Of a stretch of DNA of 64,000 nt, positions 22,782-60,387 are shown one piece after another. The notes below the pieces were generated by a model. That model was not told the DNA's origin. It made no database searches and worked only from the letters and a program-made list of their open reading frames with translations. The position numbers and the translations under genes are program-made. This stretch comes from Schmidtea polychroa (lineage: Eukaryota): contig CM097885.1 in the NCBI GenBank assembly GCA_044892525.1, positions 26,910,001 through 26,974,000 of the forward strand, written 5' to 3'. Each line of letters begins with the position of its first letter. The first letter of the stretch is position 1.

Positions 22782-23607
22782 CTATTCCATAAAATGGACG
22801 TACAGTCGTATTAAATTTTTGAGTAATAATTTATAAAATGACGAGTAATGGGTGTTTTGATTGAAACATTAATGTTAGGGTAGTAAATTTCAATCATGAT
22901 TTATTTATCGTACTTTTACTTAGGTATTTCATTGACAAGAATGCTGAATTAATTTACACTCTGTCAGTTTGATTTGTACGAATAAGAAATAATAACATGT
23001 CATTTTGTGCTACGATATCAATGTTGTGTAACGGTTTGTAATTGGGTAAATCATAATGTTATTTGAGCTCTTGGCAGCTATTGGGGGTAACGTTGGTAAT
23101 GTGACATGAGCGGGTGGCTGTCAGTTAACGACTACCGTTAGGAGGGTCTGTTCTATTTAACTCCTTTTATAGCCTCTTTCTCCTTGCTATCCAAGCATAT
23201 TGTTATATGAAAACCCTAATTTCTAATTCAAATAACTAAATATATAAATGATTTACAAAATTCTATTATATTTTCTACCTTATATTTTAAACTAGATTCC
23301 ATAATTTATTAAAGTTACACTTCAGGTATTTATAACTTACACATTTAATCAAAGTATAGTTTATAATAAATTATATATTTAAGTGAAAGGGCATAATTCT
23401 ACTTTATAATCTAGGTTTTTATAAATGATACGTTGAGGTATTATGGAATTCTAATTTATAACTCCGACATTTATAAGTTATATTCTTTATATAAAATTTT
23501 AGTTTCTGGTTTAGATATGCGTGTATTTAAGTGGATTATAAAATTCTAGCTCATAATTCAGAACTATTATACATTCACACATTATGTTCTTGGAGATGCA
23601 TCTTGTA

Positions 23608-23757
23608 CTAACCCTAACCCTAACCCTAACCCTAACCCTAACCCTAACCCTAACCCTAACCCTAACCCTAACCCTAACCCTAACCCCTAACCCTAACCCC
23701 TAACCCTAACCCTAACCCTAACCCTAACCCTAACCCTAACCCTAACCCTAACCTAAC
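23608..23757. repeat. Interstitial telomeric array (CCCTAA)~25
   Basis: Direct observation; includes two CCCCTAA variants. Confidence 0.97.
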
Positions 23758-26148
23758 GTTTATGGATTGTAAATAAGGTTATTTTTTATCATTACGTAAT
23801 AATACATTGCATTTTTAAGGCTAATACAAAAAGTATATATTATAATTCAATATTCATAGCTTACGCTTTAGGTATAATATAACGGTATATTTACCCTTTA
23901 GGATTATTATGTCTTTATATGTTATATATTCAATAAGACCTAAAGTTCAGTTTTATTATGAAATACTTACCAGTTATGTTTTCGAGAACAATATAAAGTT
24001 AGATTTCATCATTTAATATTTATAAATTATATTTTTAAGTGCGATATCAAATTACTTTTTATACTTTAGGAGTATTACATAGTTATACATTATATTTTTA
24101 AGTTCGATATAAAATTATTTTCTATTCTGTAGGAGTATTACATATTTATACATTATATTTTTAAGTTTGATATAAAATTATTTTCTATTCTGTAGGAGTA
24201 TTACATATTTACAAATTACAATATCAAATTATTTTATAATTTTAGAGATAGTACATATTTATGAATTATATTTTTAGAAACAATATGAAGTAAAATTTTA
24301 CAAATTAGGATTTTACACATTCATCAATTATACGATATAAACTTATATTGATAATTTAGAGGTATTACATATTTATCAAATATAATTCTAAGTACAGTAG
24401 TAAGTTATAGTTTACCCTTTAGGAATTCTAAGTATTTAGCGATTCTAACATATTTCTATAGTTTAGGAATATATATATTTATAGACTGATGTTTAAGTGT
24501 AACAGGAGAGTATATAGTTCATTTTACGATTCACGCTTGTCGAACTTCTTTGTGAGCATTATTACGGTTAATTTCGAGAAAGATATTTACACTGATACGA
24601 AAAATTATTTCTCAATGAGGTTCGATAAACGTGTAAGTGGAGAGGTCTTAACCGACTACATTAGCTGAATTGTAATTGCTGTGTTCAATTTGGGTCTGAG
24701 ATCTACTCGATTAGAATTCTAGTGTAATTTAGTGTATAGAATTTTTAGTGGTGATTTTAATTGTGTAATGCATTCATAGTCGGGAAGAATGCTTGCTTAC
24801 ACGGCCCCACTGTGACCGCTACGACAAGCCCTACTGTTGTGTTGAGTCGAAACATCACTGTCGACCGATAAATAAAGTATATGGAGCCATAGCGGAGGGG
24901 TTTTATCGACACAACTCCATGGTAGAACCATGAAGTGGCCGACCTCCGATGACCAAACAAAAAAAAATATATAAGGTATATTGCATGTCTGCATGTGCTA
25001 TGGATTTTACTAATTGATCGAATGTAGGACTGATCAGAGACGCATATGTATCAATACGCCGCCGATCCTTCTTACATTAGATAAAAATAATAAGCAGGGT
25101 TTGATCTAAGCATAATTAATATTAACAATAACGATCAAAGTTAATTCAAAATAAAATAAATAATATCATTATACATCAAAATTCAAATAACAAATACTCA
25201 CTATCAATGTGATCTTCAAGTTTTCGCAAAAAAGAATTTGGCATAAAAAAGTGATTCTTGCGACTGAAACGTGTCAGTATATATACTTATTTTGTACACG
25301 TGTATGTATTGATGCATTAAAACAAACTCGAATTCTTTTTATTCCAGAATTTTCTATTTTACGATTTTGATATTTTTAATGGCGATTTTTGTGCCATAAT
25401 TTTTGTTTTTATTTTTATTTTTTAATTATTTTTCATTAATTTTACGTCCATGATGAATTTGGAACGGTTCCAGAACATTCTATTTTACTTTTAATTTAAT
25501 TTTTATTTTAACTGATGTTTTTATGAATTTCTTTTTGAGATTTTTTATTTTTTATACTGATTTATTTATTTTCCTTAACTTTTGTTGTTCTAGATGACTT
25601 TTGTGTTGGTCATCGCCATTTTTATAGAATGTTCTGGGTTTTTCTGGAATGTTTTATTGTTTTTATCGTCTTTTAAGTTATTCGAGTTTGCTTTTGGTAC
25701 TTCTATGTTTATTTGGTTATTTTTGAGTTAGTTTTTTGCATCACTTCTTGCTTTTGTATAATTTTATTTAATTTCAGGGTTTAGGTTTTTGTTGTTTTCT
25801 CCTTTAATTACCATGGTTTATTTGGTGTAAGTTTTAATATTTAACTATACTTGGTGCTTTTTTTACTTGCTGTGTACCTACACGTTTCCGTCACAATTAG
25901 TATTTTGGGTCTAGAAATCAGTTCTAGCCCAACACTAGTAATATACTTGAAGTATTGTTTGACTTAAACAATGCACCTGGTTTCAGTATAGCAATGAATG
26001 AGTCATATGATATTTCTCAGACATAAAAACTTATTATTTGGATAAAATACATGTGTAAGATACATTTAAAGAGGAATTGTTGGCACTCTTACCCATGAAA
26101 AATACAACAAGAGGTGAAGATATATACAAAGACCTAAAGCAATGTTTA

Positions 26149-30858: not shown

Positions 30859-33009
30859 TTAAGAATGCATCAAAACGAATTATTCTAGAAGATTCATTTT
30901 TTTCCAAATCAATATTTATTTATTCTTTCTTCTTGTCATAGCTTCTTCGTATATAAATTTAATTTATAACTTTCCTAATTAATTTGATTATGGTCCTTCG
31001 TATGTAAATATGACCAATAGTCATTTAAATTTAAATTTAATTGTAGGATGTCTGTAGGTAGTTATCAAAAGATCGTGATTGGTGGAGTTCAGTCGTTAGA
31101 TTGAACAACGCGTTTAAAGTTGTAAATTATGAAGATGTCCTCTGTGTCATAAGTGTAGACGCAAATGAGCCTGGGAACTATTTTCCAAAACCCATCATAG
31201 AACGAGAAAAGTCGAGGTATGAACCTTTCCCCACGAGAGTACGAAAGCCTTTGATTTTAATCAAGAACTACAATACACATGTAGTATTCTCGTGATAGTA
31301 CAAGATTTTCATGGATCAAATTATCAAATCTAATGTTTTGTTTAGTTATCTGATAATTTTTTGTGTCATTTGCTTATTTTTATTATATAAATGATTATGT
31401 GAAAATGTTGAAGGTATCCGGTGAACTGAACTTATATTTTATAAGTGGAAAATTATTCAAAATAGTTTTTCGAGATCTTAAGCATGTATTTGCCGAGTAA
31501 AAAGTAAGGAAGATAGGGTTCCAGTATAAAAAATGATTTCAGAAGCCAATATAATTCTTAAAATTACAAGCGTTTGATAATTCTCATGAATATTTCTAAG
31601 ACGGTTTCCGTCTTCAAGATATATTCCATTTCAAATCCCCCTCCTTTATACTGAAACAAGTGCATATAAACAAGTGTAAATAAACACTATATCTTTTTGG
31701 TCCTTATTTTTTATTCCTTGAATAGTAAGAAACATATTTACATAATCTGTATTTGTAACTTCAAATAACTAAAGACTCCTTGAATCAAAATTTCGTTAGT
31801 GAGACAATAACAAATTTCACTCTTTTTATCTTATATCTTTACATGCCAAACAGCTCTTGTGTACTCCATTATTATTTTCCAACCTCACACATCAGTAAAA
31901 GAATGACTATTATTAATGTTGGGATATTAAAAAAAATTTAAATACTTGAAAAAGAGCCAAAATATCAACATATTTTATAGGAAGAACTGGAAATATATGA
32001 CAATTAAAAAATAAATTTCAAATAAAAGTAAACAAATTGTTAAATTTAATAACCAACAATAACTTTTGATTTAATAATTTACTTGTTCAAGTCAGAAACA
32101 ATAATATAGTGTGACACCCCGAGTATGAAATCCGACGGAACCCTACCTGAAATCCTATTCTGTACACGAAAAGAACTCCAAATCTGATTTATAATATCAT
32201 TTAAATTTCTACGTATTTCACAATCCGCCTGATAAAGATTTTCTTCGAACATAATGGCAAATTTAGTTGAGTTTGTTTTCCTTTTATTTGCTATGATTAA
32301 CAGGTATCAAAATTAATCCGCAATAAATAATTCTCATCTCTAAATTGAATACCACTAATTTAATTATTAGACCGCAATTTAACAGGATTATATTAAGTTT
32401 GTCAGATTCGAGGATTTTGTTTTCTTAATAAAATGATCAATGTGGTCAACAAAGATATTAATTAATCAGAATTCACGTGAATACGTTGTCTAAGGACCCC
32501 ATTTTGTGTAAAAACGTTATATTTGCATTGATCATTTTTCCTCTACTTTCTCCCTAAAAATATTGATTTTTCAAATTTTTATCAATTTGCACTCATTTAC
32601 ATAATCTCAACCAGTCTCAGTTAATCAATATAAAAACAGCAGGAGTCAACTTCTTTTTGAATTGAAATAATACTCCTCTCAAAAAATTATTCGAACAAAA
32701 TATCCGTAGGAAATTCTTTCAATGTAGTAATGTATAATTAAAGAATTCAACAAACAACATCAATCAACATCACATATTCACACAATCTTTAATTAAGTTA
32801 GTTAGATATCTGTTTGTTTAAATAATTTGGATTTGGCAGATTTTGTGAATTAATTAAAACTTGTTATTTAGAAATTCTTTGATTAAATATATATTATTAG
32901 TTTGAAGATTTTTGTTGCAAATTTAAAGATGGATCTAAAGATGGATTTAACTGGCGACCACGCCGAAAATCAAAATATCAACGCCATTTCAAAATCGACA
33001 AAATCGCTA

Positions 33010-34131
33010 ATGGAATGCCTACCGAAATCATGCCAAGACATGCTCACACTGAACATCAGACGATATGATGGATGAGGTTTAAAAGAAGCAGAAGAATGGA
33101 TCAGAGATATAGAAGAATGGTTGCTGACAAATGGACAGCGATTGACAAGCACTTTCGATGTGTTATTAGTGGCAGAAGCATAGACATTGTGGGGAAACGT
33201 CAGAGAAACAGAAACCACAGATGTAAAAGCCAAAGCGTGGTTCTTAAATACGTTCACAATTACAAAATCAATAACTGACAAAATCAGAGAATTGGCAGCT
33301 ATGGAACAGGAAGATGATGAAAGGTTTGCAGCTTTTGAGATACGGCTAAGGAAAGCTTTAGCTGAAGTTATAAATTCTGGACAATCTGAAGAAGATATTG
33401 TTCAAGATCTCATCGCAAATAAAGCACGCGATGCGAGACTGAGAGAGATACTATTGACGAAGCCAGAAACAAAAATTGAAGAAACGAGATCATTGGCGAA
33501 AATTTTTGAAAGTAACAAAAATGGAAACCATAAAACAGAATTTATTAAAGCAATCGGTCAAAGAACATACGCTAGCGTGACTGAGGGAGGGAAGATGAGA
33601 ATTCAAAAGAATACCCAAGATCCCATGCATACATCATCACAAAGAAGACTACCAGAAGACCAATTTAGTCACCACAGATCAAGAAGAGAAGAACATCCTA
33701 TACGCGGACCAATACAATACGAAGGAAATAACCATGGTCGTCGAGAACAATCTCCAAGAGAACAATTCTTGAGAAATGCGAGAATCCCGAATAGCTCAGA
33801 AAGGACGCTGCCAGCAATATCCATGAAAAATATTGCAAGGAGGCTGTACAATGAAAGTAGGGGACTACCACAAGCATCGGTCCCAAAATTAACGGTAGGT
33901 GATTGTTTTTGCTGTGGCGAAAGGGGACATAGAAGGTATGAGTGTCCACTGGGAAATAAATGTCTGATATGTGGCAAGGAAGGACACGGGTTCCGAGATT
34001 GTTTTTCGTTACGGAAAGATGTTACACAACGATATCAAAGAATAGCGTGCATAGAAGAAGAAGATTCAAAATCTGAAACAAGAGATTACACTGAGAACGG
34101 CCAGGATTTCAGAATGGATCACAGCAATATG
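33010..34131 (+). pseudogene. gag: Element A gag (two CCHC knuckles; stops at 33073 and 33181; tail resumes at 42177-42280)
   Basis: CFCCGERGHRRYEC and CLICGKEGHGFRDC; the frame continues across the ATATG TSD. Confidence 0.9.
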
Positions 34132-35011
34132 TGTAGTGAGCCGTTACACGGCCTTAACAATATCTATATACCTATTATACTATATTATATTATATTATAC
34201 GATATTATATTATATATATAAATGCGCGGTCACCAGCGACTAAGGACCAAACAGAACACAATAACAGTCAATCAAAATTCGTGCGATCAGCTAATACTTC
34301 TACTTATCAATCAGGCTCTATTAATCAATCTCAGAAGAGTAAAGCAAATTCGATGCCATGTTATCATTATCAAGATAAACTGTATTCGGCTCCCAATAGT
34401 TTTAGTGTTGGCTCTCATAGACCAACACCCTCATCCATTACAATTCGCGAAATACGGAACAAATCCTAACAATAATATAAAAACCTAAATTTGTTTATTT
34501 TGCATTTATTTATTAGTAATTGACTATTTGAAATTCTTACGCGAACTTTATAAAATCGTTAAGCTTTTTAAATTATATATTTTTAAAAATCTGTTTATTT
34601 TTTATCGAATGATATAATTTTGTATTTTTTGTAACTTTGTTTACTTATATGTATAAATTTTGTAAAAGATTTCCTGGCTTGTTTATATATTCGCGAACTT
34701 TATAAAATCGTTAAGCTTTTTAAATTATATATTTTTAAAAATCTGTTTATTTTTTATCGAATGATATAATTTTGTATTTTTTGTAACTTTGTTTACTTAT
34801 ATGTATAAATTTTGTAAAAGATTTCCTGGCTTGTTTATATATTCCAAAAAAAATGAATAAACTGGGTGTTTTAAAATATTACAATTGTAGTTGTTTTTTG
34901 AGAATTATAATTCGTTTTCAATCTTGATCGCTATATTTGGATTTTGATTTTGAAATAATATACTTATCCTGATCGTATTAATAACAGCTTATTGAAATTG
35001 TATAATCGGAC

Positions 35012-37753
35012 ATGTTCCCGTTTTCTAAATCAATTTTCATGATTCTCGGAAGTTTTCAAGAAGACACAGAAAATCTAAAAAATCTTGATCCCAGATTTTG
35101 GATTACTCGCGAAACCTATCATCGTGCGATTGCCAAATTACCAGAAAGGACTACGCCAACCACAACATTGGTGTCAGAAGTGCCAGAACAATGTTCAAGA
35201 TTTGAACAATTAGAAACTTATTTATCTAATATCATTGCTAAATCCAGATTACAGGAAATACAATCTATGTTAGTTTCTCATAAACGAACAGCGGAATTAC
35301 GTCAAAATATGTTCCATATGCTTTCCAAAATATTTTCTGAATTAAAACTTTCATCAAAATTTAATCCTATATCCCATGATATTGATAGGCTGATAGATCA
35401 ATTGATAATTGCTCATTCCTGTTTTTTGTCATCGAATCGAGAAGAGTATATCAAATTAACTCAGACAATTCCAGATCGTGATTCTTTGGATCCCGTAGTC
35501 GTTCTAGGTGATTCCATTTCGACCCCTGCAAATATCACAGATAATAATCATATTCCAAATGGTCAATTTCAAATTGCTGACCCGATAAATAAATCGTCTT
35601 TCAAATTTATCAAGAAAAGTATTCAATTACAATCTGAATCATCGGATACTAAATCCGAATTTCCCCTATTCAGTGCTTTCAATAGCTCAGCTGGTAATGA
35701 TATTACTGAATTCCACAGTACACTGAATTCTACATCTCCCCTGTCACGGCTTTCAGATCAGAAATCATTTATGAACAGTTTGAATTCAGTTGGTTCGTCG
35801 AATTCTCTGCTGGAAAGTTTCTACCATTTAAATTCTCAAAACCACGCCGCAATCAACAGTAACAACAATAATAATCAGTCATACGATCACAACATCAATC
35901 AACAGGCAAACAACAACGGTGTGCTTAACTACGGTCAGTATCAGTATCGAAACGAAATGGATATAAATCGCATATTTGGCTCGGAGAAACCGAACTCACA
36001 TTACGATCAGAAATATAAAGATACAGCCGATATAGATTTTGATTCGATTAATGTTTCCCGGCAAGCATTGGCTGAGATGATTGCCGTTGAAAATCGTCAA
36101 AAAATGACTCCGATCAATAATTATATACCAAATAACAAATTGCTAACGAGTGATGTCTTACACACAGCCCCACAACGCATCATGCTTCGACCAAATCCAA
36201 ATGAATTCTTAATGCAACAGAATAATGATTTTTTCACATTAAACTCTCGTGCACCGGGACAGCCATTTATTCACGATAATAAACCGTCTCCCAGCGAATC
36301 GAGACTCAATCAAGCAATGCCCGTGTCAGCACCGCCAGGTACCTTAGATCGATTACCTCTAAATTATATTATTATATTATTATTAAATTATACTATATTA
36401 TTATTGATTTATATTATTATTGATATCATATATAAAATTATAAAAAATTATTTAAATAAGCATCAGCCCACACGAGAGGGTAGCGCCGCACCGGGGCCCA
36501 AAAAGTTCCAAATATTAATAGAAAACCCTGGAACAAATAAGACACAAACCGTTTCAGTTGACACAGACACTACAATTAAAGGTCTTTCTAAAAATTACAG
36601 CACATTGACTAATCACAAATGCCGTTTTCTCTTGTCGTATAACGGCAACATCCTTTCCGACAGTCGTACCTTGGGCGACTATGGAGTGACACCATACAGC
36701 GTCATTCATTGTTTGTTGCCACTTTCTGGCGGTTCCTCCGATTCGGAGAATGACTCAGGCAGCAACCCCAAACAGGCAAAACATAAGCGTAGGTCCAACA
36801 ACCAGCGATCAACGTACTTATGTCAATATTTTTTGGATGAGAATAACTCTCCACTTACTTGGCTGATAGCTACCGAACTAGTACTCGAGGGAATCGAGGT
36901 AACCAGTTCACGAGACAAATACTGTCGCATCTTGCCGTTGATTCCGCCGACGATATTAAGTAAACTTTCGTCCGTGATCCTTCGCACTTCGCCTACTAGC
37001 GTAAAAAACCCATATGAAGAATTGCGTACGGCAATCCTCGATATTTTTAAAGAACCTACAGCTGCCGTCTTCACTAAATACTTCAAGACGCAAACTTTGG
37101 GCAGCAGAAAACCATCACAGTTCTTGCAACACGCTATGGCGGAACTAACGCAAATACACCCGGAGGCTGCGGCGGATCAAAAACTCTTGAGGCAATTTTT
37201 TCTGTCTGCTTTACCGCCACACGCACAACAAATTTTAGCGCTTTCGTCAACAGCAGACGTGGTAGAGCTAGCAAAGATGGCCGACAAGATTAACGAAGTC
37301 GTGCCACTTGGTCCGCAACCAACTTGCTCTGTGCAGTTAAGTAGCAGCACTAACCCCGAAATTTTACCTTCTTCTTCTTTAAAACCTTCGACCGAAGAAG
37401 CTTTACTTTGCGCTATTACAGGCCTCACTAAACGCATCAGCGAGCTTGAGAATAGCATGTCCACCAGGCGGACAAATGACGACAGGCAATATGCCCAAAA
37501 ATCACACTTGGTGCAAAATACTCGTCAACGTTCACCTTCACCTGCAACCAGGAACCTGTGCCGTTTCCATTTTAAGTTTCGTAACAAGGCATGGTTCTGC
37601 CATTTAGGTTGCAATTGGCGAGATAAAGCACCATCCTGTCAGATACTTGACAAGTGTATATACCACGACAGGTTTGGAGATAAAGCCTTAAAATGCTTCG
37701 AAGGCTGCTCCAATTACACAAAACCTAAAGCAAACAATCAAAAAAACTTATAA
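35012..37753 (+). CDS. gag: Extended Gag: N-terminal helical and Asn/Ser-rich region, hydrophobic segment, ubiquitin-like domain (36506-36733), capsid, two Cys/His motifs
   Basis: 913-aa open frame. Ubl FQILIEN...LSYNGNILSDSRTLGDYGV...IHCLLPLSGG; capsid motifs PYEELRTAIL, LGSRKPSQFL, FFLSALP; CRFHFKF..C...C and CIYHDRFGDKALKC...C. The true start codon is uncertain. Confidence 0.9.
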   Translation: MFPFSKSIFMILGSFQEDTENLKNLDPRFWITRETYHRAIAKLPERTTPTTTLVSEVPEQCSRFEQLETYLSNIIAKSRLQEIQSMLVSHKRTAELRQNMFHMLSKIFSELKLSSKFNPISHDIDRLIDQLIIAHSCFLSSNREEYIKLTQTIPDRDSLDPVVVLGDSISTPANITDNNHIPNGQFQIADPINKSSFKFIKKSIQLQSESSDTKSEFPLFSAFNSSAGNDITEFHSTLNSTSPLSRLSDQKSFMNSLNSVGSSNSLLESFYHLNSQNHAAINSNNNNNQSYDHNINQQANNNGVLNYGQYQYRNEMDINRIFGSEKPNSHYDQKYKDTADIDFDSINVSRQALAEMIAVENRQKMTPINNYIPNNKLLTSDVLHTAPQRIMLRPNPNEFLMQQNNDFFTLNSRAPGQPFIHDNKPSPSESRLNQAMPVSAPPGTLDRLPLNYIIILLLNYTILLLIYIIIDIIYKIIKNYLNKHQPTREGSAAPGPKKFQILIENPGTNKTQTVSVDTDTTIKGLSKNYSTLTNHKCRFLLSYNGNILSDSRTLGDYGVTPYSVIHCLLPLSGGSSDSENDSGSNPKQAKHKRRSNNQRSTYLCQYFLDENNSPLTWLIATELVLEGIEVTSSRDKYCRILPLIPPTILSKLSSVILRTSPTSVKNPYEELRTAILDIFKEPTAAVFTKYFKTQTLGSRKPSQFLQHAMAELTQIHPEAAADQKLLRQFFLSALPPHAQQILALSSTADVVELAKMADKINEVVPLGPQPTCSVQLSSSTNPEILPSSSLKPSTEEALLCAITGLTKRISELENSMSTRRTNDDRQYAQKSHLVQNTRQRSPSPATRNLCRFHFKFRNKAWFCHLGCNWRDKAPSCQILDKCIYHDRFGDKALKCFEGCSNYTKPKANNQKNL

Positions 37754-40700
37754 TGCCACCACTTCTAGCGGCAGAGGTGGGAGGCAAAATTTCATCAAAA
37801 TCAGATTTATTTTTAATAGAAGCAGAGTCAAACGCTTTTAATATATTGTCGTCTCCTTCCAACAGACTAAAATTCCTTGTCGACACTGGTTCCAGCTTGT
37901 CGATCTTACCTAAAGAGTACCTTCCAGACCTCAACACTGTCGATATTTCTTTGAAGGCCGCAAACGGTAGTGTTGTTGAGACTTTAGGTTCAAAGACAAT
38001 TGCTTTCTCGTTGCCATTTCTGTCCGACCAATTATTTGAGTGGAAATTTTATATAGCAGAGGTTATTATCCCCATATTAGGATCTGATTTTTTAAGCGCT
38101 AACGAACTACTCGTCGATTGCCGTGGACGCACTTTAAGGATAAATAACCAATTAAACTGCAGCACTATTCCCTCAAACATCTTTGAAGATCCACAACGGA
38201 TAGGAACGGACGATATAAATACTACTCCGTCGAAAACGGTTATAACAATCGAACACCCAAAAATAGCCGTAGATATTATTAATAGGTGTTTTAACACGCC
38301 AATAAGTGACGTTTCGAAGCCGCTTTACTGCCACACGATCGACACAACTTCATCTTTACCAGTTAGATGCAAAATTAGACCACTGTCGAATGAAAAACTC
38401 GAATTTGTACGTTCCGAGTTCACTAACCTCTTACATGAGGGTACCATTCGGAGATCTAAATCTCCATGGTCATCGCCATTGCACCTGGTCCCAAAAAAAG
38501 ATGGCACTTTCCGTCCGTGTGGCGACTATCGAAACCTTAATGCTATTACGGTACATGATTCCTATAGCATGCCGCTTGTTAGTGATATCCTTCACCGTCT
38601 TTCAAAGGCAAAGATTTTCTCCACAATCGACCTCGTGAAGGCGTACCATCAGATACCCGTGCGAGAGTCTGACATAGAAAAAACAGCCGTAATAACTCCG
38701 ATCGGACTTTTCGAGTACGTGCATATGCCATTTGGCCTTCGGAATTCTGCACAGACCTTTCAAAGGTATATTGATCAAGTCTTAATGGACCTACCTTTCG
38801 CAGTTCCATACATAGACGACATTTTAATCGGATCACCTGACTTAGAGACGCATATAACCCATCTAACAAGAACTTTAACAGCACTTCGGCAATACAACCT
38901 TAAGGTAAACGTCGATAAGTGTACCTTCTTCCAACACGAGACTCGTTTCCTGGGACATTTAATTTCCGCAGATGGAATCCGACCTCCTCCGGATAGACTA
39001 GATACCATAGCCAAATTCCCACTTCCAAAAACAGTTTCACAACTGAGAAGTTTTTTGGGAACGATAAACTATTGTCATCGTTTTATTCCAGGGGTTTCTG
39101 ACATTTTGTCACCTCTTTCAGGTCTCGTCTCAAAACCAAAAAAGTCTTTAGTGTCATGGAGCGATACCACACTCAGTGCATTTGAAAACGCTAAGTCGGC
39201 ACTTTCGAAAATTCAAACACTCCATTTTCCCAATGCTGATTTACCTTGTAGTCTGACCACTGATGCATCAAACGTTGCTATTGGTGCAGTATTACACCAA
39301 TTACATAATGACATTTCTGAACCCTTAGAGTTTTTCTCAAAGAAACTTTCTTCCGCACAACGGAAATATTCGGCTTTCGACCGAGAACTCTTAGGCATAT
39401 ATCTTTCAATCAAACATTTCAAGCACTTGCTTGAAGGTCGTCCTTTTGTCATCTACACTGACCACAAACCGCTAACTTATCTTTTTGGAATGAAAGACCC
39501 ATCTCCACGACAACAGAGGCAAATCAGTTATATTTCAGAATTTTCTTGCGAAATACGCCACATTGCCGGCAAAGAAAACGTTATTGCAGACTGTCTTTCC
39601 CGCAGCACCAACGCTATATTGCACGATCCGATATTTCCAGTACAGTGCCTCCGCGACAATCCACCTTCGGCAAAAGATCTAGCTGCTTTTGGCGATAAAC
39701 TTGAAATCGTGGACGGAGTACACTTTGACTCGTCTTTATCAGGTGTTTTAAGACCGATTTTGCACGATTCCTTACGGAAATTAGCTTTCCACTCCATTCA
39801 CGACTTACATCATCCAGGCTCGTCGGCTACCTTTAACCTATTGCATTCACATGTGGTTTGGCCAGCAATGAGGCACGATATTAAATTGTGGGTGAGTCAG
39901 TGCATCGGTTGTCAACAACACAAGATCACTAGACACACTAAGCCACAGATGATTCACTATCCGACCGGAAATAGGTTCGAAATTCTTCACATCGACCTGG
40001 TCGGCCCCTTGCCTTCTGATCGCGGTTTTTCTTACTTATTAACTATGATTGACCGGAAAACGCGTTGGTTTGAAGTTATTCCTCTGAAAAACATTTCTGC
40101 TGAAATTGTAGCAAATTCAATTTTGCAACATTGGATTTCTAGATACGGTGTTCTGAAATCAATAATCACAGACAGGGGATCTCAGTTTGAATCCCAGTTA
40201 TTTCAACAGCTAACTGAAAAGCTCGGTATACAACACCTCCGTTCAACTGCTTACCATCCTCAGACAAACGGCATGATCGAAAGATTTCACCGTACTTTGA
40301 AGACCTCTCTTGGAATACTTTCATCGAGACTTAATTGGACTAAAGCTTTACCTTTTGTCCTTCTTGGTTGGCGTAACACACCCTCCAGGACTACCGGAAC
40401 TACACCGGCACAGTTACTTTTCGGTTCTTCAACATCGTTACCTAACGAATTAGTTGATTTCGATAACGCTCCTACCTTTGAGGAATTAGATATGGCTAGA
40501 GATCATTTTCTTTCGATCGATAGCAACCCACAGTTTTCGTATGCTTCCTCATATACACCGTACGTCCCAAAGTCCTTCAAGGACGCAACTCACGTTTATC
40601 TTCGTAATATTACGGATTCAGGTCTCAAACCGAGATATTCGGGGCCTTACAAATTGATCGACATTAAGGATAACAATGCTCACATCGTTATTAACGGTGT

Positions 40701-41118
40701 TACCCAAAATATAAATTTGTGCCGACTTAAACCGGCTTTTATGATTTCTGATGACGTGGACGAGGACAAACTTCACTCTGATTTAGAGAAAGTCTCAGTC
40801 GAACCCATTTCAACTACGTCGAACGAAAACCTTTCAGTAGAACCGGCCACGGACTCAAACGAAATCGCGCGTACCATGATCACAAACTACCAACGCGATG
40901 AAAATTTAGCTACAGAGAATACACATTCAGCAACAACAAATCCACTTAATCTTCGCTCAATTGTTTCGAAACCCGACAAGCAGCGAACCGCGAAAAATGT
41001 GAAACATAGTGATAAGATTTGGGTGCGCCAAATTGGGGAAGACATTTCCAAACCTCCAAGACTTGCCAGAGTCTATTCCAATGAAAACTTGACACATCTG
41101 ATGCTGAAATTCACTTAA
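37753..41118 (+). CDS. pol: Element B Pol: protease, RT, RNase H, integrase
   Basis: FLVDTGSS, YIDD, TTDASNVAIG, HHPG...CIGCQ, HIDLVGP, TDRGSQF, NGMIERFH. Confidence 0.97.
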   Translation: MPPLLAAEVGGKISSKSDLFLIEAESNAFNILSSPSNRLKFLVDTGSSLSILPKEYLPDLNTVDISLKAANGSVVETLGSKTIAFSLPFLSDQLFEWKFYIAEVIIPILGSDFLSANELLVDCRGRTLRINNQLNCSTIPSNIFEDPQRIGTDDINTTPSKTVITIEHPKIAVDIINRCFNTPISDVSKPLYCHTIDTTSSLPVRCKIRPLSNEKLEFVRSEFTNLLHEGTIRRSKSPWSSPLHLVPKKDGTFRPCGDYRNLNAITVHDSYSMPLVSDILHRLSKAKIFSTIDLVKAYHQIPVRESDIEKTAVITPIGLFEYVHMPFGLRNSAQTFQRYIDQVLMDLPFAVPYIDDILIGSPDLETHITHLTRTLTALRQYNLKVNVDKCTFFQHETRFLGHLISADGIRPPPDRLDTIAKFPLPKTVSQLRSFLGTINYCHRFIPGVSDILSPLSGLVSKPKKSLVSWSDTTLSAFENAKSALSKIQTLHFPNADLPCSLTTDASNVAIGAVLHQLHNDISEPLEFFSKKLSSAQRKYSAFDRELLGIYLSIKHFKHLLEGRPFVIYTDHKPLTYLFGMKDPSPRQQRQISYISEFSCEIRHIAGKENVIADCLSRSTNAILHDPIFPVQCLRDNPPSAKDLAAFGDKLEIVDGVHFDSSLSGVLRPILHDSLRKLAFHSIHDLHHPGSSATFNLLHSHVVWPAMRHDIKLWVSQCIGCQQHKITRHTKPQMIHYPTGNRFEILHIDLVGPLPSDRGFSYLLTMIDRKTRWFEVIPLKNISAEIVANSILQHWISRYGVLKSIITDRGSQFESQLFQQLTEKLGIQHLRSTAYHPQTNGMIERFHRTLKTSLGILSSRLNWTKALPFVLLGWRNTPSRTTGTTPAQLLFGSSTSLPNELVDFDNAPTFEELDMARDHFLSIDSNPQFSYASSYTPYVPKSFKDATHVYLRNITDSGLKPRYSGPYKLIDIKDNNAHIVINGVTQNINLCRLKPAFMISDDVDEDKLHSDLEKVSVEPISTTSNENLSVEPATDSNEIARTMITNYQRDENLATENTHSATTNPLNLRSIVSKPDKQRTAKNVKHSDKIWVRQIGEDISKPPRLARVYSNENLTHLMLKFT

Positions 41119-42328
41119 CTTTATTCCATGTGATCAATTAATTCATCAATCGCCGATTTCCTTTTTAGACACTATCTACCTTTGATAAATTGTCACTACT
41201 TTTCGACTTACATCTTGTTTCTAGTAGATCTTTCATCAATCTCTATTCTTGAGTCCCTGTGCGCTCCGCGACTTCCCGTGGGGCTGATGTAGTGAGCCGT
41301 TACACGGCCTTAACAATATCTATATACCTATTATACTATATTATATTATATTATACGATATTATATTATATATATAAATGCGCGGTCACCAGCGACTAAG
41401 GACCAAACAGAACACAATAACAGTCAATCAAAATTCGTGCGATCAGCTAATACTTCTACTTATCAATCAGGCTCTATTAATCAATCTCAGAAGAGTAAAG
41501 CAAATTCGATGCCATGTTATCATTATCAAGATAAACTGTATTCGGCTCCCAATAGTTTTAGTGTTGGCTCTCATAGACCAACACCCTCATCCATTACAAT
41601 TCGCGAAATACGGAACAAATCCCAACAATAATATAAAAACCTAAATTTGTTTATTTTGCATTTATTTATTAGTAATTGACTATTTGAAATTCTTACGCGA
41701 ACTTTATAAAATCGTTAAGCTTTTTAAATTATATATTTTTAAAAATCTGTTTATTTTTTATCGAATGATATAATTTTGTATTTTTTGTAACTTTGTTTAC
41801 TTATATGTATAAATTTTGTAAAAGATTTCCTGGCTTGTTTATATATTCCAAAAAAAATGAATAAACTGGGTGTTTTAAAATATTACAATTGTAGTTGTTT
41901 TTTGAGAATTATAATTCGTTTTCAATCTTGATCGATATATTTGGATATTGATTTTGAAATAATATACTTATCCTGATCGTATTAATAACAGCTTATTGAA
42001 ATTGTATAATCGGACATGTTCCCGTTTTCTAAATCAATTTTCATGATTCTCGGAAGTTTTCAAGAAGACACAGAAAATCTAAAAAATCTTGATCCCAGAT
42101 TTTGGATTACTCGCGAAACCTATCATCGTGCGATTGCCAAATTACCAGAAAGGACTACGCCAACCACAACAATATGGAAGATAGATACAATGTCCCTGGG
42201 AAATATACTATATTGAGAGAAGACGGAAAAAACATCAGCGACTCCATGGGTTTCATTTCGTCGGTGGAGTCAAGACAATAAATTGTGAAATAGGAAATGA
42301 ACGACGAAGAGACGAGGCAGAAGAAGAG

Positions 42329-45300
42329 ATGTACCAGACGAAAGATGGAAGAAATTGGAGTAAAATAATGTTGAATAATGCCGAAACAGAGATGTTATGG
42401 GATTCTGGAGCATCAGTAACAGTTATGAGCAAGAATTTGTGGGAGAAAATAGGCAAACCAGAACTTAAACGTAGTATGATATTATTGTGCGGAGTTTTTT
42501 CAACTGGAGGTGAAGAAGCAATGGGATACATGACTATACCGGCCACGTGGAATCAGAAGACCAAAATGATCACAGTAGTAGTGGTAAAAGAGATCAAACC
42601 CGAATTCATAGGAGGCATTGATACAATGAAAGAGTTTGTTGTAAAGTTAATGAAAATCAATAATATAGAAACGTCATTGATAAACAAAATTTACACTGAT
42701 GAAGAAAGAATAAATAAAGCACTAGTGGCGATGGCAGGTGAGAATAATAAAGATATGGAAGGAATGATCAGGGAATTCGGCGGAATTTTTATGGCATCGA
42801 AATTCGATCTGGGATTTACAAACTTAGTTCGAGATGAGATGCGGATAACAGGAGGCCCAATAATGCAACATCCTCGACGTCAACCAATGCACATGGAGAA
42901 AAGGATTGAAGAACTGATAAAAGAGTTAAAGAAAGCAAATGTTATTCGGTGTTGCAAGAGTCCTTGGAATGCCCCGTTAGTGATAGTAGGGAAGAAAGAT
43001 GGATCTATCAGGATGTGTGTAGATTATCGCGGATTAAATTCCATAACAGAAAAAGAGTCATTTCCGATGCCTAACACCAAATTCTTACTAGACTGTCTCG
43101 CGAATGCAAAAATATTTTCGTCAATCGATTTAGGTCAGGCGTATTATCAAGTGGAGTTAGCTCCAGAAATTCAAGAGATGACTGCATTCAGTACAAGAGA
43201 AGGACAATTTTGCTTCAATAGACTACCATTTGGCTTAGCAACAGCTCCTGCGACATTCCAGAGACTGATGCACACAGTGCTAGAAGGAATGCTATTCAAG
43301 GGAGTAGTAGTTTATCTAGATGATATCTTGGTATATGGTAAAAGTCAAAAAGACCACGATGAGCTATTAAGGGAAATATTCAGAAGAATTCAAGTGGCAG
43401 GACTGAAGATAAATCCAGAAAAATGCAAATTCAATAAAACAGAATTGTGTTTCCTTGGTCACACAATTAACGAGAAGGGTATCCAGACAAACAGGAAGAA
43501 AGTGGAAGAGATCGAGAAAGCAGAAGTACCAAAATGTTCAAAACAATTGAGATCGTTTCTCGGATTAACGAACTACTATAGAAGATTCATCAAAGACTAT
43601 GCCAAAATCGCCGAACCATTATACGCTGCAACATCTGGATGCGATAAAGATATAAGTTGGACTAAAGAATGCAATGAGAGCTTCCAAACTCTGAAGAGAC
43701 GGTTGTGCGAAGCACCTATCCTTGATTTTCCAAGAGAAGATAGGACTTTTATCTTAGACACAGACGCTAGTTTTGGAGCCATTGGTGCAGTTTTGAGTCA
43801 AATTACAGAAGATGGAGAAGAATCTGTCATAGCTTATGGCTCGAGACATATGTCATCACATGAAAAGGGATACTGTGTAACCAGGAAAGAACTGCTCGCC
43901 GTACATGAATACGTCATGCATTTTAGAGAATATCTGTACGGAAAAAAATTCATAATTCGCACCGACCACAAGGCATTGGTTTTCATGAACACTACAAAAA
44001 CGCCAATCAGTCCGCAGTTCCAAACATGGTTAGCTAACCTGTCGGAATATGATTTTGAACTAAAATATCGGAAAGGCGAAGAACACTCGAATGCAGATGG
44101 ACTATCAAGATTAAAAAGTATGGTTTGCACTCAGTGTCAAACAAGACATGAAGAAGCTAAGCAAGGAAAATCAAAGATTAGATATATATATACTATCCAA
44201 AGAACAGAAGCTATGGAAAAAGTATGGGAACAACAACAAAAGGACATTCGGTTTCAAGAGCTGCGAGAGATATTGGAAAATGGATGTACACGGGAGAAAA
44301 AGAATTGTTTTCCTTTTAACGTAAAAAATACACGAATTAATGGAGGATTAATAACAGTAGAAAAGAACAAAAATATCTTAATGTTAGTCCCAGAAACATT
44401 TGCAGGCCTGTTAACAACAACACTACATGAAGAACTATGTCACATTGTAGTTAAGAAATTATTTCATTATATGGAAAAGATATTTTATTGGCCGAAAATG
44501 CAAGAAACAATCCAACTCTGTTTACGATGTTGCGAGATCTGCGCTAAGAGAAAGATCGATCAGACAAGAACCAAGGAAACATTTATTCCTAGATATAGCT
44601 CTGAATTCCTAGAACAGATTGTTATAGATGTGGCTTACATGGAAATAAACGCCATGAAAAAATATATGGTAGTAATGGTGGACCGTTTTAGCAAACTGAT
44701 TTCTTTAACTGCAATAACAAAGCAAGACGAAGGGACCATTTTCAAAACAATACTTAATAGTTGGATCTATCGATTTGGAAAACCGAAGAGCATTTTAACA
44801 GATAGAGGCCGAAATTTCGAAGGGAATTTCCTAAGACAGAAGCTACAGAAACTTGGAATCAAACAGGAATTCAGCTCGCCTTATCAGCACCAATCAAATG
44901 GTTTAGCCGAAAGAGCCATACGAACGATAAGAGATCTTATTACAGCAACATTGGCAGGCGGATGTGAAGAGAGAAACTGGCACGAACTTCTACCCAGAAT
45001 AGAGTTCACTATAAATAGCAGTCGACAAAGTGCTACAGGTTTATCACCATTTGAGATAATCTATGGACGGAGTGTTAACCTACACTCTAACCTGAAACAA
45101 GCCGAGATATCAAGAAGCGAAAGAATCGAAGACGCGAGATTTAATTCGAGTAAAGCCGCAGACACTATGAGAGCTATGGATAAGACAAAGAGGGGCACTC
45201 GTGTTTTCGAGGTGGGGGAGGAGGTACTCGTACGTAAAGAGCCGCAGAACAGGCACAAGGATGGTATGCAATACGATGGCCCATATAAAATCGCCAGATT

Positions 45301-45388
45301 TCTATCACCTCATCGAGTCGAACTACATTCACAAGAAGGAACGAAAGAAAGAAGAATCGAGTGGCTGAAGAAGTGGAAAAATTCTTAA
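42329..45388 (+). CDS. pol: Element A Pol: protease, RT, RNase H, integrase
   Basis: WDSGAS, YLDD, LDTDASFGAIG, TDRGRNFE, SNGLAER. The frame is open back to the slippery site at 42227. Confidence 0.96.
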   Translation: MYQTKDGRNWSKIMLNNAETEMLWDSGASVTVMSKNLWEKIGKPELKRSMILLCGVFSTGGEEAMGYMTIPATWNQKTKMITVVVVKEIKPEFIGGIDTMKEFVVKLMKINNIETSLINKIYTDEERINKALVAMAGENNKDMEGMIREFGGIFMASKFDLGFTNLVRDEMRITGGPIMQHPRRQPMHMEKRIEELIKELKKANVIRCCKSPWNAPLVIVGKKDGSIRMCVDYRGLNSITEKESFPMPNTKFLLDCLANAKIFSSIDLGQAYYQVELAPEIQEMTAFSTREGQFCFNRLPFGLATAPATFQRLMHTVLEGMLFKGVVVYLDDILVYGKSQKDHDELLREIFRRIQVAGLKINPEKCKFNKTELCFLGHTINEKGIQTNRKKVEEIEKAEVPKCSKQLRSFLGLTNYYRRFIKDYAKIAEPLYAATSGCDKDISWTKECNESFQTLKRRLCEAPILDFPREDRTFILDTDASFGAIGAVLSQITEDGEESVIAYGSRHMSSHEKGYCVTRKELLAVHEYVMHFREYLYGKKFIIRTDHKALVFMNTTKTPISPQFQTWLANLSEYDFELKYRKGEEHSNADGLSRLKSMVCTQCQTRHEEAKQGKSKIRYIYTIQRTEAMEKVWEQQQKDIRFQELREILENGCTREKKNCFPFNVKNTRINGGLITVEKNKNILMLVPETFAGLLTTTLHEELCHIVVKKLFHYMEKIFYWPKMQETIQLCLRCCEICAKRKIDQTRTKETFIPRYSSEFLEQIVIDVAYMEINAMKKYMVVMVDRFSKLISLTAITKQDEGTIFKTILNSWIYRFGKPKSILTDRGRNFEGNFLRQKLQKLGIKQEFSSPYQHQSNGLAERAIRTIRDLITATLAGGCEERNWHELLPRIEFTINSSRQSATGLSPFEIIYGRSVNLHSNLKQAEISRSERIEDARFNSSKAADTMRAMDKTKRGTRVFEVGEEVLVRKEPQNRHKDGMQYDGPYKIARFLSPHRVELHSQEGTKERRIEWLKKWKNS

Positions 45389-45741
45389 GAAGGGGAGAGT
45401 TAGATATCTGTTTGTTTAAATAATTTGGATTTGGCAGATTTTGTGAATTAATTAAAACTTGTTATTTAGAAATTCTTTGATTAAATATATATTATTAGTT
45501 TGAAGATCTTTGTTGCAAATTTAAAGATGGATCTAAAGATGGATTTAACTAAGTTACTTTTCAATTAATTTTAATTTATGTAATTTATCATTTTAATTTT
45601 ATTTTCATACTATTGAAATGTATTATAGACTCAAAATTAAATAAAAAAAACGAATACCTTCTTCGAGGAAAAAATTGAAAATTAATCAATTAAAAATTTT
45701 ACAGCAAATAAAACAAATATATTTTCCAAATTTACGGTCTA

Positions 45742-49400: not shown

Positions 49401-52400
49401 AGATTGTAATTGGCCACTTTAGAGACTTTCTTCTTGTGCAATAAAACCTTATTAGTTGATCTAGAATGTCAGCCCCTGAGTTTCTGCTATTATAATAATT
49501 CACGACATCAGGTTTCATGGTTTTCTCAGTGGAAATTAATTTGTACAAAGGGGTTAGAATTGAATTTTCTTGATATCTTGGTGAAAAGTTAGTCAATATG
49601 TTGTGTAGCAATTCTTTAACGTTTTGTTTAAGTTCTATAGCAAGGGTGGGCACGCATGAGTTCAATGAGAGACATTTTCCGAAAATTTATTTTTTAAAGA
49701 GCCACCATAGTGAACTACATATTTTTTTTTATTTCATTAATTTGATTAAAAAAGACTTAAACGCTATTAAAAACAATTATTTCAAAATTTAAGTAACAAA
49801 CATAAAATATAATAAAAATAAGTAATAAAATTTCTTGAATTAACGAAGACTTTTGGTCAAATCTTTGAAATTTGGTGTATACTTTGTTAAAGCTGTTCGC
49901 AGCAATTCTGTAAGATGCTGATTGGTCAACTGTGAACGATATTTCGATTTCACGAACTTCATTGTGGAGTACAAAGATTCACAACAATATGTTGTACCAA
50001 AAATTGAAATTAGACGGCAAGCAGCTTGTTTTAAGTGTGGATATTTTGCCTCTGGTACGAGTTTCCAAAATTCAATTATAGAAGTAACTTTATGGTGCAT
50101 TTGCAAAGCCTGGTCCTCTTTCATATCTAATAACTCCAATTCCCCAACCGCTTTTTTAACAAGTATTACTTCAGAAATTGGAAATCCATCTTCAATAATA
50201 TCACAAATAAATGGGTTCACAAAAAATGCAAATGTAGATTTAAAACTTTTCAAATCTTCAAACCTACATTTGAAATCCGCTTGCAATTCTTCCAATTTTT
50301 CACTGTATTCGTTTACTTTTTCTTCTGTGATATCAATTTTATTAGCTTTTATTCGTGGAAAATGATTAAATATTTTCGACCTAAGATCGTTCACAAAAAG
50401 CCGAAGTTTAGCTTCAAAACTAAATAACGTTTGTGACAAATCAATAATTATCTTTTCTTTTCCTTGTAAAGCCAAATTTAATATTTGCAAATGTTCCATA
50501 ATGTCTGTAAGGAACATTAAGTCAGAAAGCCAAGTTTCATTTTCTAATTCTGGGTATGCTATTCCTTTTTCTTTGGTAAATATTATGATAGGATTTAGGA
50601 GTTCCACAAAACGGTCCAAAACATTGTAAGTTGACAGCCATCTAACAATACACCATAAGGAGACATCATTGGGCAATTCATCTGTTTCATCATTTAATCT
50701 TAATTCTTCTAAAAAGTTTTTAAATTGACGATGTGTTTTGGCATTTGTTCTAATTAAATTCACAATCTTCAAAACAATCTTCCACACATTTTCGTATTTA
50801 AAGTACTTCGCTATGAGATGCTCGCGATGAATTATGCATTGAAGAGATAAGAAATGAGGAATATTTGGATCTCTGTTTAAAAGACCAATGAGACCTTGAT
50901 TTTTCCCCATCATTGCAGGCGCTCCGTCTGTCGCAACACTTACAAGTTTATCACGCGCCAATTCAAACTTGTCCATCACTACATCAAGCGCAGTTTTGAC
51001 ATCGATACCGCGAGTTGTTTCTTTAAGAGCTACTAGGTCTAAAATTTCTTCCTTTACTTTTACGTCAGAAGATACAAAGCGGACAAAAACGGCTAATTGT
51101 GGAACATCCTGAATGTCAGTAGACTCGTCGAGAGCTAAACTGAATGCTGTACAATTTTTTAAATCACACATCAAATTATTTTCAACATTTTCGCTAATTT
51201 GGCCAATTCGACGCGCAGTTGTACGACGTGACATAGGAATACGTGAGATCAATTTATGTAGTTTTGAGTTATCCGGATCCAAAACTTTAATCACTTCTTC
51301 CAAGTTTCTCTTAATAAATTCACCTTCTCCATATGTACGTTTAGCACGAGCTATATTCCAAGCTATCAAAAAACTAGCTTCGTTGGCACTGTCATCTTCT
51401 CGACTAAAAGAAGACATTAGTCCTTGTTGGTTTTGAAGCCCTGATTGCAATGACTTAAGTTTTTCTGTTCGCAATTTTGAATTGAGTGGATATTGAATTG
51501 ATAAGTGTGGATGACTTACTTCATAGTGTCGACGTAAATTGGTTACTTTGTAGTTGGAAATTGTAACTTTACAAATAAGACACAACGATTTACCATTATT
51601 GTCAATAAAAAAAAACTTTTCTGTCCATTCTTCTTGAAAAGTTCTATTTTCTTGTTTGTATTTTCGTTTTTTGATGTTTTCTGAGGTCATTGTAATAATA
51701 AATTTGAATAACTTATATTACTGAAATTTAAACAAAATAATAAAAAGACATAAATTTAATTTTAATTAATTTAAAATTTTAAAATGCTTCATAAAAAATC
51801 TTCTTACCAAATTTTTCAAAAAACACGAATAGAAAACTATACTAAAATATACAAACGACCGCAATATTGTACAAACAAAAATACTAACTAATCAAAATTC
51901 ACTAAATTTCACTAAATTTATTTTCATTGCTTCTCTCTCGTTGTTATAACAAAGCGCCGCCTACTACAAAATAATTTTAAAAAGCAGTAAAATTTTCAAA
52001 TTCAATTATCAAAAATTCAATTATCAATGAGCCGCAGTTTACTCAACGAAGAGCCGCATTTGCCCACCGTTGTTCTATAGTTTTCACTGGATGTAGTTTA
52101 TCTTTAGATAGAATGGAATTTCTGTCAATTTCATGCAAACGATCAGATCATGAACCATCAGTATTATCTTCATCCGAGTGCATTGATTCAATGATTTCAT
52201 CAACAGCGGACTATGTGGATAATTCATCAGTTTCATCTTTACAGAAAGAAGCGGAATCATTTTGAATTTCATTGATAAGGAATTCAGCAGCATCTTGTGC
52301 ATTCACTATGTAGTCTTGAACAATGAAAGATATAATTATAGATCTATTCAATCCTTGCACAATATTAATTTTTTTATCAATAAAAAGTTTTAACGGAGTT

Positions 52401-59672: not shown

Positions 59673-59806
59673 TAATTAAACGTACAGTATTCTTTTATTT
59701 ATTTTTTCAGTATATTTTAGTTCAGTAAATATAATAATTTGTTTTGTAAAAAAATGAAAATATTTAAGTAAATAATTATAACATAACGCCAATCAAACAT
59801 TCTTTT

Positions 59807-59845
59807 CACGATTAATTTCGACAGTTTTCCTGTCATCATCAGGTG
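59807..59845 (-). ncRNA. Hammerhead ribozyme (inverted pLTR copy)
   Basis: Reverse complement of the motif at 60388-60426. Confidence 0.75.
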
Positions 59846-60387
59846 GGATATAATAACTCATTAAATTAAGGATTTTAAACAAATTTATTAATTATACATT
59901 ATTAATTATATATTAATCATACTTTGGAGAGACTTCCCGTCATCTCTGTATTCGAGCTCGAGAACATTGTAGACCGAAGGCTTTGACCCATATTGGTGAG
60001 CACAATAAGGGCTGTAAGATTAAAATAGGTATGTCTGATTTTAAAATTTTAATAAAAAATTTCGATAATTATTGGGAACGTGTGATTTGTGAGGCGTTGT
60101 TGATAAAATCATTGAATTCGAAAATTAATGTGCAGAATGCAGTAAATACTTGTGTTTTGAGTGTTTTTAAATAAGTTTTTTAATAGGTTTTTTATATTGT
60201 ATGTATTGATTGTTGTATTAAATTAAATAATTAATAAAAAAATTTTTTTTAAATTATTAAATTACATTTTAAATGTTAAAATTTAAAAAAAAATAATATA
60301 TTATTTTTTTTATAAAATAAAAAATTTTTTTTTATATATAATTAATAAATTTGTTTAAAATCCTTAATTTAATGAGTTATTATATCC

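Follow-up and report, generated by a model that had tools for sequence, protein, structure and literature searches.

The 64,000-nucleotide (nt) window analysed here, positions 26,910,001 to 26,974,000 of Schmidtea polychroa contig CM097885.1, contains an 8.0 kb Ty3/gypsy retrotransposon whose gag gene carries a ubiquitin-like domain (Ubl) ending in di-glycine (GG) ahead of the capsid (CA). Long terminal repeats (LTRs), a primer-binding site (PBS), a purine tract, a target-site duplication, gag, and the order PR (protease), RT (reverse transcriptase), RH (RNase H), IN (integrase) are all present, and the site of insertion is another gypsy element, in which this one is nested. Leaving aside a 152-nt tandem duplication of the 5' LTR, the LTRs differ at 3 of 884 nt, indicating a young element; gag and pol are both open, as the first-pass annotation of the window had described them. 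The element is laid out as follows.

34127..34131 (+), 5-bp target-site duplication, with its partner at 42172-42176
34132..35167 (+), 5' LTR, TG...CA, with the 152-nt tandem duplication at about 34540-34843
35012..37753 (+), gag (open reading frame 1, ORF1), 913 amino acids (aa), open
37729..41118 (+), pol, open, encoding protease, RT, RNase H and integrase, in a -1 frame overlap with gag
37741..37747 (+), A AAA AAC heptamer in the gag/pol overlap, a candidate -1 frameshift site with a hairpin predicted just 3'
41288..42171 (+), 3' LTR, preceded by a purine-rich tract

Rfam gave zero matches over 34000-38000. ORF1 runs from a module of the LTR through the PBS, a host-derived leader, a hydrophobic stretch, the Ubl with its GG, a linker, the capsid and a long helix to two CX2HX9CX3C (CHCC) motifs, the parts behind the LTR being:

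35169..35182 (+), PBS, translated in the gag frame to LVSEV
35508..35704 (+), leader segment with 92% identity, in the same frame, to a host gene that is not part of an element (L128/L155)
35716..36317 (+), leader segment with 94% identity, in the same frame, to the low-complexity region of a single non-element CNOT4-like locus
36353..36460 (+), hydrophobic stretch, 93% A+T DNA, open in the gag frame only, a possible membrane anchor in this subfamily
36506..36733 (+), Ubl, 76 open codons ending LPLSGG, with the di-glycine at 36728-36733
36734..36802 (+), disordered linker of 23 residues from Ubl to capsid, whose first residue, Ser, is the predicted new N-terminus
36803..37324 (+), capsid, N- and C-terminal lobes, retroviral-type, with DUF7041 at the N-lobe
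37559..37708 (+), two tandem CHCC motifs

The Ubl aligns with ubiquitin from end to end, terminal GG included, at 34% identity, and matches the Pfam ubiquitin family PF00240 with E=4.5e-11 (42.8 bits, cut-off 25.4). Its AlphaFold 2 model is a beta-grasp (pLDDT 85-96 over residues 1-70) that superposes on ubiquitin with Z 14.4 and a root-mean-square deviation (rmsd) of 1.1 Å over 73 residues. A chance match is thereby ruled out, and the first-pass annotation, which had recognised the domain by eye between the hydrophobic stretch and the capsid/zinc-binding region and had proposed these profile and structure checks, is borne out on fold, di-glycine and position alike. No Met occurs between ORF1 residues 436 and 709, so a free capsid N-terminus in this element would need proteolysis. 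The di-glycine sits at the 75-76 position, as in conjugatable ubiquitin-type modifiers. The surface of ubiquitin formed by R42, I44, R72 and R74 is used by ubiquitin E1, and the equivalents in the Ubl are L, S, P and S. With P, L and S in place of R72, R42 and I44, conjugation of a freed Ubl, which had also been suggested, is unlikely.

Folded separately, the capsid has only Gag-type capsids among its top 35 structural neighbours (dArc1, Z 9.6; the C-terminal domain of murine leukaemia virus CA, Z 9.2, rmsd 2.1); Foldseek alone returned no match at E<=0.001.

A search of the genome (781 Mb in four large contigs), in which 89 of 1,673 candidates were scored, gave 90 matches to the family. Twenty copies were fetched whole; the PBS could be located in 19, ten of which have the full 1,129-aa pol frame, and a 5-bp duplication flanks all 15 copies with both ends readable. 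A one-off insertion of the Ubl into a single copy was considered and is ruled out by the family matches together with the clade-wide presence described below. The GG is kept at 43 of 44 family loci, the exception being a copy whose leader frame was already broken. Ratios of nonsynonymous to synonymous polymorphism (pN/pS), obtained from 43 loci compared with the window copy and from variants common to at least two copies, were 0.81 for the leader, 0.28 for the Ubl, 0.25 for CA and 0.10 for the C-terminal part, so purifying selection on the Ubl was found at about the level of the capsid. Shared indels were in frame in 5/5 cases in the leader against 0/5 in the non-coding LTR, and for all indels the counts were 7/17 and 0/11. 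Together, the pN/pS ratios and in-frame indels indicate that the leader must stay open while its residues hardly matter, and that the residues of the Ubl do matter. One copy, L057 (G000:C2:97402455-97403888), has gag and pol in a single 1,747-codon frame.

A protein search of 1.84 billion representatives gave 1,355 matches, 150 of which were listed. A capsid tree of 69 rows (the window, 67 of the listed matches and one cluster member, with fragments and polyubiquitins excluded) separated 29 canonical DUF7041 Gags from a 40-row group (SH-aLRT 99), most of whose members have an F[FY]LD signature and a doubled CHCC. The motif [L/I/A]xGG lies shortly before the capsid in 34 of the 40 group rows. 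In the remaining six the predicted gene begins no more than 26 aa ahead of the capsid; for the one whose DNA was inspected, LLGG is encoded immediately in front of the predicted start Met. All 35 testable relatives, with capsids 26-45% identical, thus keep the motif, which was found in 0/29 outgroup Gag rows. In protease-site numbering, the tail has R/K at P5 in 26/34 relatives, L/I at P4 in 33/34 (a class that holds partly by construction, because the GG was found with a pattern search), Pro at P1' in 0/34 and Ser at P1' in 16/34, with mostly hydrophobic P6 and P8. Relatives' Ubls are mostly <35% identical to ubiquitin and many escape Pfam. Two relatives (P0018 and P0161) have Ubls 68-74% identical to ubiquitin inside a subclade of Ubls about 20-30% identical, so that a near-genuine ubiquitin fills the same slot; recapture of real ubiquitin is probable there, judging by these identities. 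Metagenome contigs gave four matched loci, and two such contigs have long uninterrupted frames in DNA. Two word-index searches for relatives gave one match each, the ESM Atlas only DUF7041 clusters, under 0.9, and a search of viral contigs for relatives none.

One alternative is that the Ubl stays on, or is removed by the element's own aspartic protease, acting as a matrix-like folding or interaction domain with the GG as a flexible hinge; the atypical tail of this family and the linker of 18-49 residues between Ubl and capsid, which provides alternative cut sites, would fit such a role. This is rather unlikely, as members of the clade keep the ubiquitin-type tail but share no conserved Ubl surface, and the conserved residues are those read by a ubiquitin-specific protease (USP) in ubiquitin (L71, R72, L73 and GG, in the portion of PMC10611586 consulted).

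The hydrophobic stretch has a Kyte-Doolittle (KD) 19-mer maximum of 2.67 and ends 28 residues before the Ubl. The first-pass annotation had placed a membrane-tethered precursor at the core of its reading, in which a host protease frees Gag from the membrane. In favour of tethering as the point of the design, young copies reach KD 2.58-2.67 with basic residues following, only 20 of the 329 shuffles of this DNA that stayed open (from 20,000) reach KD 2.5, and a BEL/Pao-type family described below also has a hydrophobic stretch behind the PBS. However, older family copies have KD 1.6-2.0, the DNA is 93% A+T, there is no constant signal peptide, and a segment of KD>=2 within 250 aa upstream occurs in only 8/20 relatives, at a variable distance of 28-190 aa. 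Of the proposed order transmembrane segment, Ubl, GG and capsid, the last three elements therefore stood and the first did not. The hydrophobic stretch is not a clade feature and does not define the system, and we consider tethering as the central function improbable; in this subfamily the stretch may anchor or stop-transfer the precursor.

The part of ORF1 upstream of the Ubl, an in-frame mosaic of host mRNA that begins in the LTR, had escaped the first-pass annotation. The ATG of ORF1 lies at 35012, and the frame reads on through the PBS. The relevant LTR features are:

34140..34175 (+), degenerate copy of a host spliced-leader (SL) exon, right where the LTR begins
34851..35128 (+), LTR module that is exchangeable, follows an A-run and holds the ORF1 ATG 35012
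35129..35167 (+), final 39 nt of the LTR, conserved and read as part of the gag frame

Sister-copy LTRs agree over their initial 350-570 nt and their terminal 39 nt (a shorter related end in one group), with unrelated modules between. In copies selected from the top Gag matches with varied frame lengths, not randomly, the gag frame was the longest open frame upstream of the PBS in 18/19 (47-169 codons against 6-45), the nineteenth being uncounted owing to an offset of the PBS locator; 17 of the 18 have an ATG in that frame, and the gag frame is the longest of six in 7/8 LTR types. Modules start with host 5' ends and provide the in-frame ATG. One sister module, with 21 element-type matches, encodes a signal-peptide-like start and a MANEC-like domain and matches a host gene minus its 47-nt GT-AG intron, indicating that it came from spliced mRNA. 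Another copy has a glutaredoxin in the LTR and the helices of a seven-transmembrane protein after the PBS. For the window's own module no source was identified among 37 matches.

Within the window's leader, the label CNOT4 comes from the RNA-recognition motif of the host gene, which matched a PDB entry with E=2.7e-10, and the piece has taken the place of an earlier capture of about 590 nt, its 3' junction showing microhomology. The host gene of the other piece is, weakly, GW182/TNRC6-like, by motif order only (E about 1). Pfam gave no name to the CNOT4-like or GW182-like host ORFs. No host source was found for leader residues 57-165, the candidate loci L159 and L160 being other element derivatives; these reuse short junction motifs of the family around other host pieces, are devoid of the hydrophobic stretch, and in one case resemble by eye a TRIP12/UFD4-type ARM-WWE region. 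Four contig runs were used only to find loose ends pointing at host genes; among the joints listed, none was a splice across the leader. In relatives, leaders hold pieces of histone H2A, 5'-nucleotidase, CNOT1, Rrp44 and SCC3, several leaders are short, and a translated PBS (in any of three frames) occurs upstream of the Ubl in 14 of the 20 relatives with at least 60 upstream residues, compared with 0 in 10,203 control residues.

The captured genes are mostly a mixed lot, but factors of RNA decay and silencing turn up repeatedly: CNOT4 and possibly GW182 in the window (35508-36317), CNOT1 and Rrp44 in an unrelated relative (P0078/P0287). The freed Ubl-GG with its leader could accordingly be imagined as an effector, conjugated or serving as a decoy for deubiquitinases or RNA-silencing factors, all the more as a free GG would be exposed. 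Loss of the R72, R42 and I44 equivalents, the near-neutral leader and the fact that most captured genes are unrelated to silencing make this highly improbable.

The 5' part of the LTR showed further features. In the window (34132-34175) and at L061-L072, L073 and L076-L092, an LTR start of the TGTAGTGA type is joined to an intact or decayed SL exon, followed by differing sequence; the SL piece may serve as shared homology for strand transfer or mRNA capture. SL-RNA-type genes were found at 3 of 20 loci opened (L074, L075 and L081), with an exon ending in ATG, a GT donor, a U-rich Sm-type site and, by eye, a 3' hairpin; L074 and L075 contain inverted pairs. In the consulted part of PMC12582326, an SL exon ending in ATG before the GT donor is given as a flatworm trait and parasitic flatworms are said to have fragments of the SL at LTR loci; excerpts of PMC7346339 and 10.1101/2023.07.20.549885 supplied further SL background. 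A flatworm-type SL AUG as the Gag start was considered and set aside, since the candidate acceptor before the A-run, by eye in the gag frame in some copies, is out of frame in the window. At 34835-34860 and its 3' LTR equivalent, the variable module begins at an A-run after a U-rich, UGUA-containing, polyadenylation-like stretch, which suggests either an R region of very small size or a switch at the poly(A) junction.

The same pairing of host pieces and ubiquitin occurs in a BEL/Pao-type family of this genome (L031-L040, e.g. G000:C1:18604200-18614100), for which 1,199 first-look candidates yielded 90 matches. Here host pieces (Rab, proteasome alpha, dual-specificity phosphatase and CCT) lie in the LTR, followed by PBS read-through, a hydrophobic stretch, a pair of ubiquitins, the first with LRGG and the second mostly with LAGG at its end, and a DUF1759 Gag with protease. 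DUF1759 was above cut-off in the four long ORFs of seven scanned, and LTR pairs are present. The elements measure about 5-5.5 kb, with 1423 aa as the longest open frame among the 90 matches; RT, RH and IN gave no match in the ORFs scanned, and no autonomous partner was found. The family is probably non-autonomous, going by its coding content. A word-index search with the BEL region was swamped by polyubiquitin. Genome-wide, the ubiquitin family has 1,240 first-look candidates; ten of 150 listed were opened, below the top canonical scores, and all lie in BEL/Pao-type Gag ORFs. Judged from the architecture of the two families, the pairing of Ubl-GG with host pieces arose independently in the BEL/Pao-type one.

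We propose, with a probability of roughly 60%, that the Ubl works as a cleavable pro-domain: a deubiquitinase of the host would cut behind the GG and release Gag from whatever N-terminus has been borrowed. ORF1 is open from the LTR ATG, where translation would begin, across the PBS and through a leader of host mRNA pieces. Demonstrably for one piece and presumably for the rest, these derive from spliced mRNA, captured probably by reverse-transcriptase template switching at microhomologies. The leader is held in frame without amino-acid constraint, whereas the Ubl, tail included, is conserved. Cleavage after GG by a deubiquitinase or Ubl protease of the host would then follow, as for FUBI-eS30 and SDE2, giving Gag and Gag-Pol a fixed N-terminus whatever lies upstream, so that 5' ends and start codons could be taken from host genes without harm to assembly. 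Should a signal peptide be captured, the hydrophobic stretch of this subfamily may hold Ubl-Gag in the cytosol as an anchor or stop-transfer sequence. A cleavable Ubl gains a clearer purpose because the part upstream of it is an in-frame mosaic starting in the LTR. Of the first-pass reading, the GG-dependent Ubl cleavable by a host protease is thus supported by the kept tail and purifying selection, and the membrane-tethered precursor at its core is not.

Gag processing in LTR retrotransposons is generally taken as the work of the element's own protease. If the proposal is correct, release of the capsid in this clade would rely on a deubiquitinase of the host, adding a new host dependency and a new point of control. 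The proposal would also explain how coding sequence from spliced host mRNA came to be shuffled, in frame, into element copies numbering in the hundreds, with a bearing on gene-fragment duplication and on small-RNA cross-talk between elements and host genes. Retroelement Gag ORFs among the genome's first-look ubiquitin-family candidates also carry a risk of mis-annotation.

Several points weigh against cleavage after GG and an in-frame host leader. The Ubl of this family has an atypical tail, P5 being Pro and both P3 and the I44 equivalent being Ser, and many deubiquitinases may reject it. In five relatives a Met follows directly after GG, and Gag could start there; the GG itself was located by a pattern search upstream of the capsid, and the leaders of relatives other than the two metagenome contigs are gene-caller products. 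The capsid tree is a quick, midpoint-rooted one, and just 9 outgroup rows had at least 30 residues upstream. The pN/pS values pool subfamilies and rest on small counts (15 synonymous and 14 nonsynonymous for the Ubl), and gaps in the hydrophobic stretch are not reliably alignable. Host pieces were mostly recognised via translation of the gag frame, and a long open frame was the main criterion in choosing the ten BEL loci.

Cleavage could also take place for Gag dosage, folding or N-degron control, in the manner of SDE2 and of fusions between ubiquitin and ribosomal proteins, host-mRNA capture being a tolerated by-product without benefit. The near-neutral leader (0.81), the miscellaneous captured genes, the short leaders of several relatives, a mostly small P1' (Ser in 16/34) and the precedent of SDE2 (in the part of PMC13572447 consulted) agree with this view. 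It is nevertheless unlikely, if still worth weighing, considering that modules begin with host 5' ends and bring an in-frame ATG, that module-swapped subfamilies have expanded (the MANEC module having its 21 element-type matches) and that the same pairing is found in the BEL/Pao-type family. Alongside release from a borrowed N-terminus, we put forward only tentatively that two unrelated LTR superfamilies converged on repeatedly exchanging the host-derived mRNA 5' ends in their LTRs, in frame with gag, so that translation would start from host start contexts and the elements would perhaps resemble host genes to small-RNA silencing. The GG cut by a host deubiquitinase would be the adaptor by which any borrowed N-terminus does no harm, in which case that deubiquitinase would be an essential Gag maturation enzyme.

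Elsewhere in the window, the outer gypsy element spans 32800-45550 and is split by the insertion (gag 33184-34131, pol 42185-45388); it has 153-nt direct repeats at 32800-32952 and 45398-45550 and a CCHC-type Gag without a visible Ubl. An open 625-aa hAT transposase with a Spin-doc zinc finger lies at 49840-51717 (-), an interstitial (CCCTAA)n telomere-type repeat at 23600-23760, and a 143-nt inverted repeat resembling a miniature inverted-repeat transposable element at 59773-60460 (arms 94% complementary, spacing 402 nt).

The PBS of the element is complementary to the 3' end of a tRNA-like sequence with a long variable arm in a tRNA array, for which the ARAGORN call is unreliable; we take this partner to be of the Leu type, and Trp looks unlikely. 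The array, at G000:C2:73.95-74.09 Mb (L194, L195), is a large tandem one with a unit of ~733 nt that comprises tRNA-Gly, tRNA-Gln and the tRNA-like 3' half complementary to the PBS, a sequence with 2,280 pattern matches genome-wide. Placement near the CsRn1 clade rests on Gag features, the capsid tree only separating the group from other DUF7041 Gags. As far as the text of PMC2582038 was available, that clade (CsRn1, PwRn1 and AgCR) is defined by the CX2HX9CX3C Gag signature and has in common with the element a DUF7041-type capsid, a -1 gag/pol overlap, PR-RT-RH-IN order and the absence of env. It differs in the target-site duplication (4 bp for a PwRn1 copy, 5 bp here) and apparently in its tRNA-Trp primer, which the element's PBS does not resemble, and only the element has two CHCC motifs, Ubl-GG before the capsid and an ORF1 opening in the LTR; in the main text of that paper, 'ubiquitin' occurs 0 times.

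A CsRn1-like Ty3/gypsy element with a ubiquitin-type pro-domain and in-frame host-mRNA capture is apparently an undescribed variant: the parts have precedents and, within the literature searched, the combination has none. No Ubl-GG ahead of the capsid was described for LTR retrotransposons in the literature listings and abstract openings searched (Repbase, GyDB, subscription journals and supplements lay outside the search and could contain an earlier annotation), nor was there anything on it in the portions of PMC8532177, PMC9289625 and PMC11410931 consulted.

The nearest case found is that of the planarian Burro/GYPSM1 elements, which likewise have a gypsy polyprotein with ubiquitin/SUMO-like and other host-derived domains, but in the part of PMC6431247 consulted the N-terminal position is taken by a Gag with CCHC knuckles, their Ubl comes after it, flanked by MATH and BCL-2, and no GG processing role is mentioned. 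They are also giant (>25 kb), with an internal env-like region, whereas the element described here is 8.0 kb long with CHCC motifs and the Ubl upstream of the capsid, and is therefore not Burro. A ubiquitin label reportedly appears in the Burro figure of Grohme et al. 2018. Cytopathic pestiviruses (bovine viral diarrhoea virus) offer a parallel, with repeated independent capture, mosaic inserts and host ubiquitin in the polyprotein ahead of the protein whose release it drives; according to the excerpt of PMC13517609 seen, however, these are sporadic insertions in RNA viruses, whereas the Ubl of the element is far diverged and fixed across a deep clade. For SDE2 and FUBI-eS30, the consulted portions of PMC13572447, PMC8354635 and PMC10611586 describe a divergent ubiquitin fold (FUBI is 36% identical to ubiquitin) that is cut after GG by a USP to give a working protein: SDE2 is cleaved by USP5 (PMC13572447), GG mutants of FUBI-eS30 are non-cleavable (PMC8354635), and recognition of ubiquitin by a USP involves L71/R72/L73 (PMC10611586). 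The conserved GG in the element's clade is in keeping with a pro-domain of this type, with Leu or Ile at P4 in 33/34 and a residue other than Pro at P1' in 34/34. SDE2 and FUBI-eS30 are host genes with the Ubl at the very N-terminus, whereas in the element the Ubl is internal and mobile, lies behind a variable leader, and is predicted to be cleaved.

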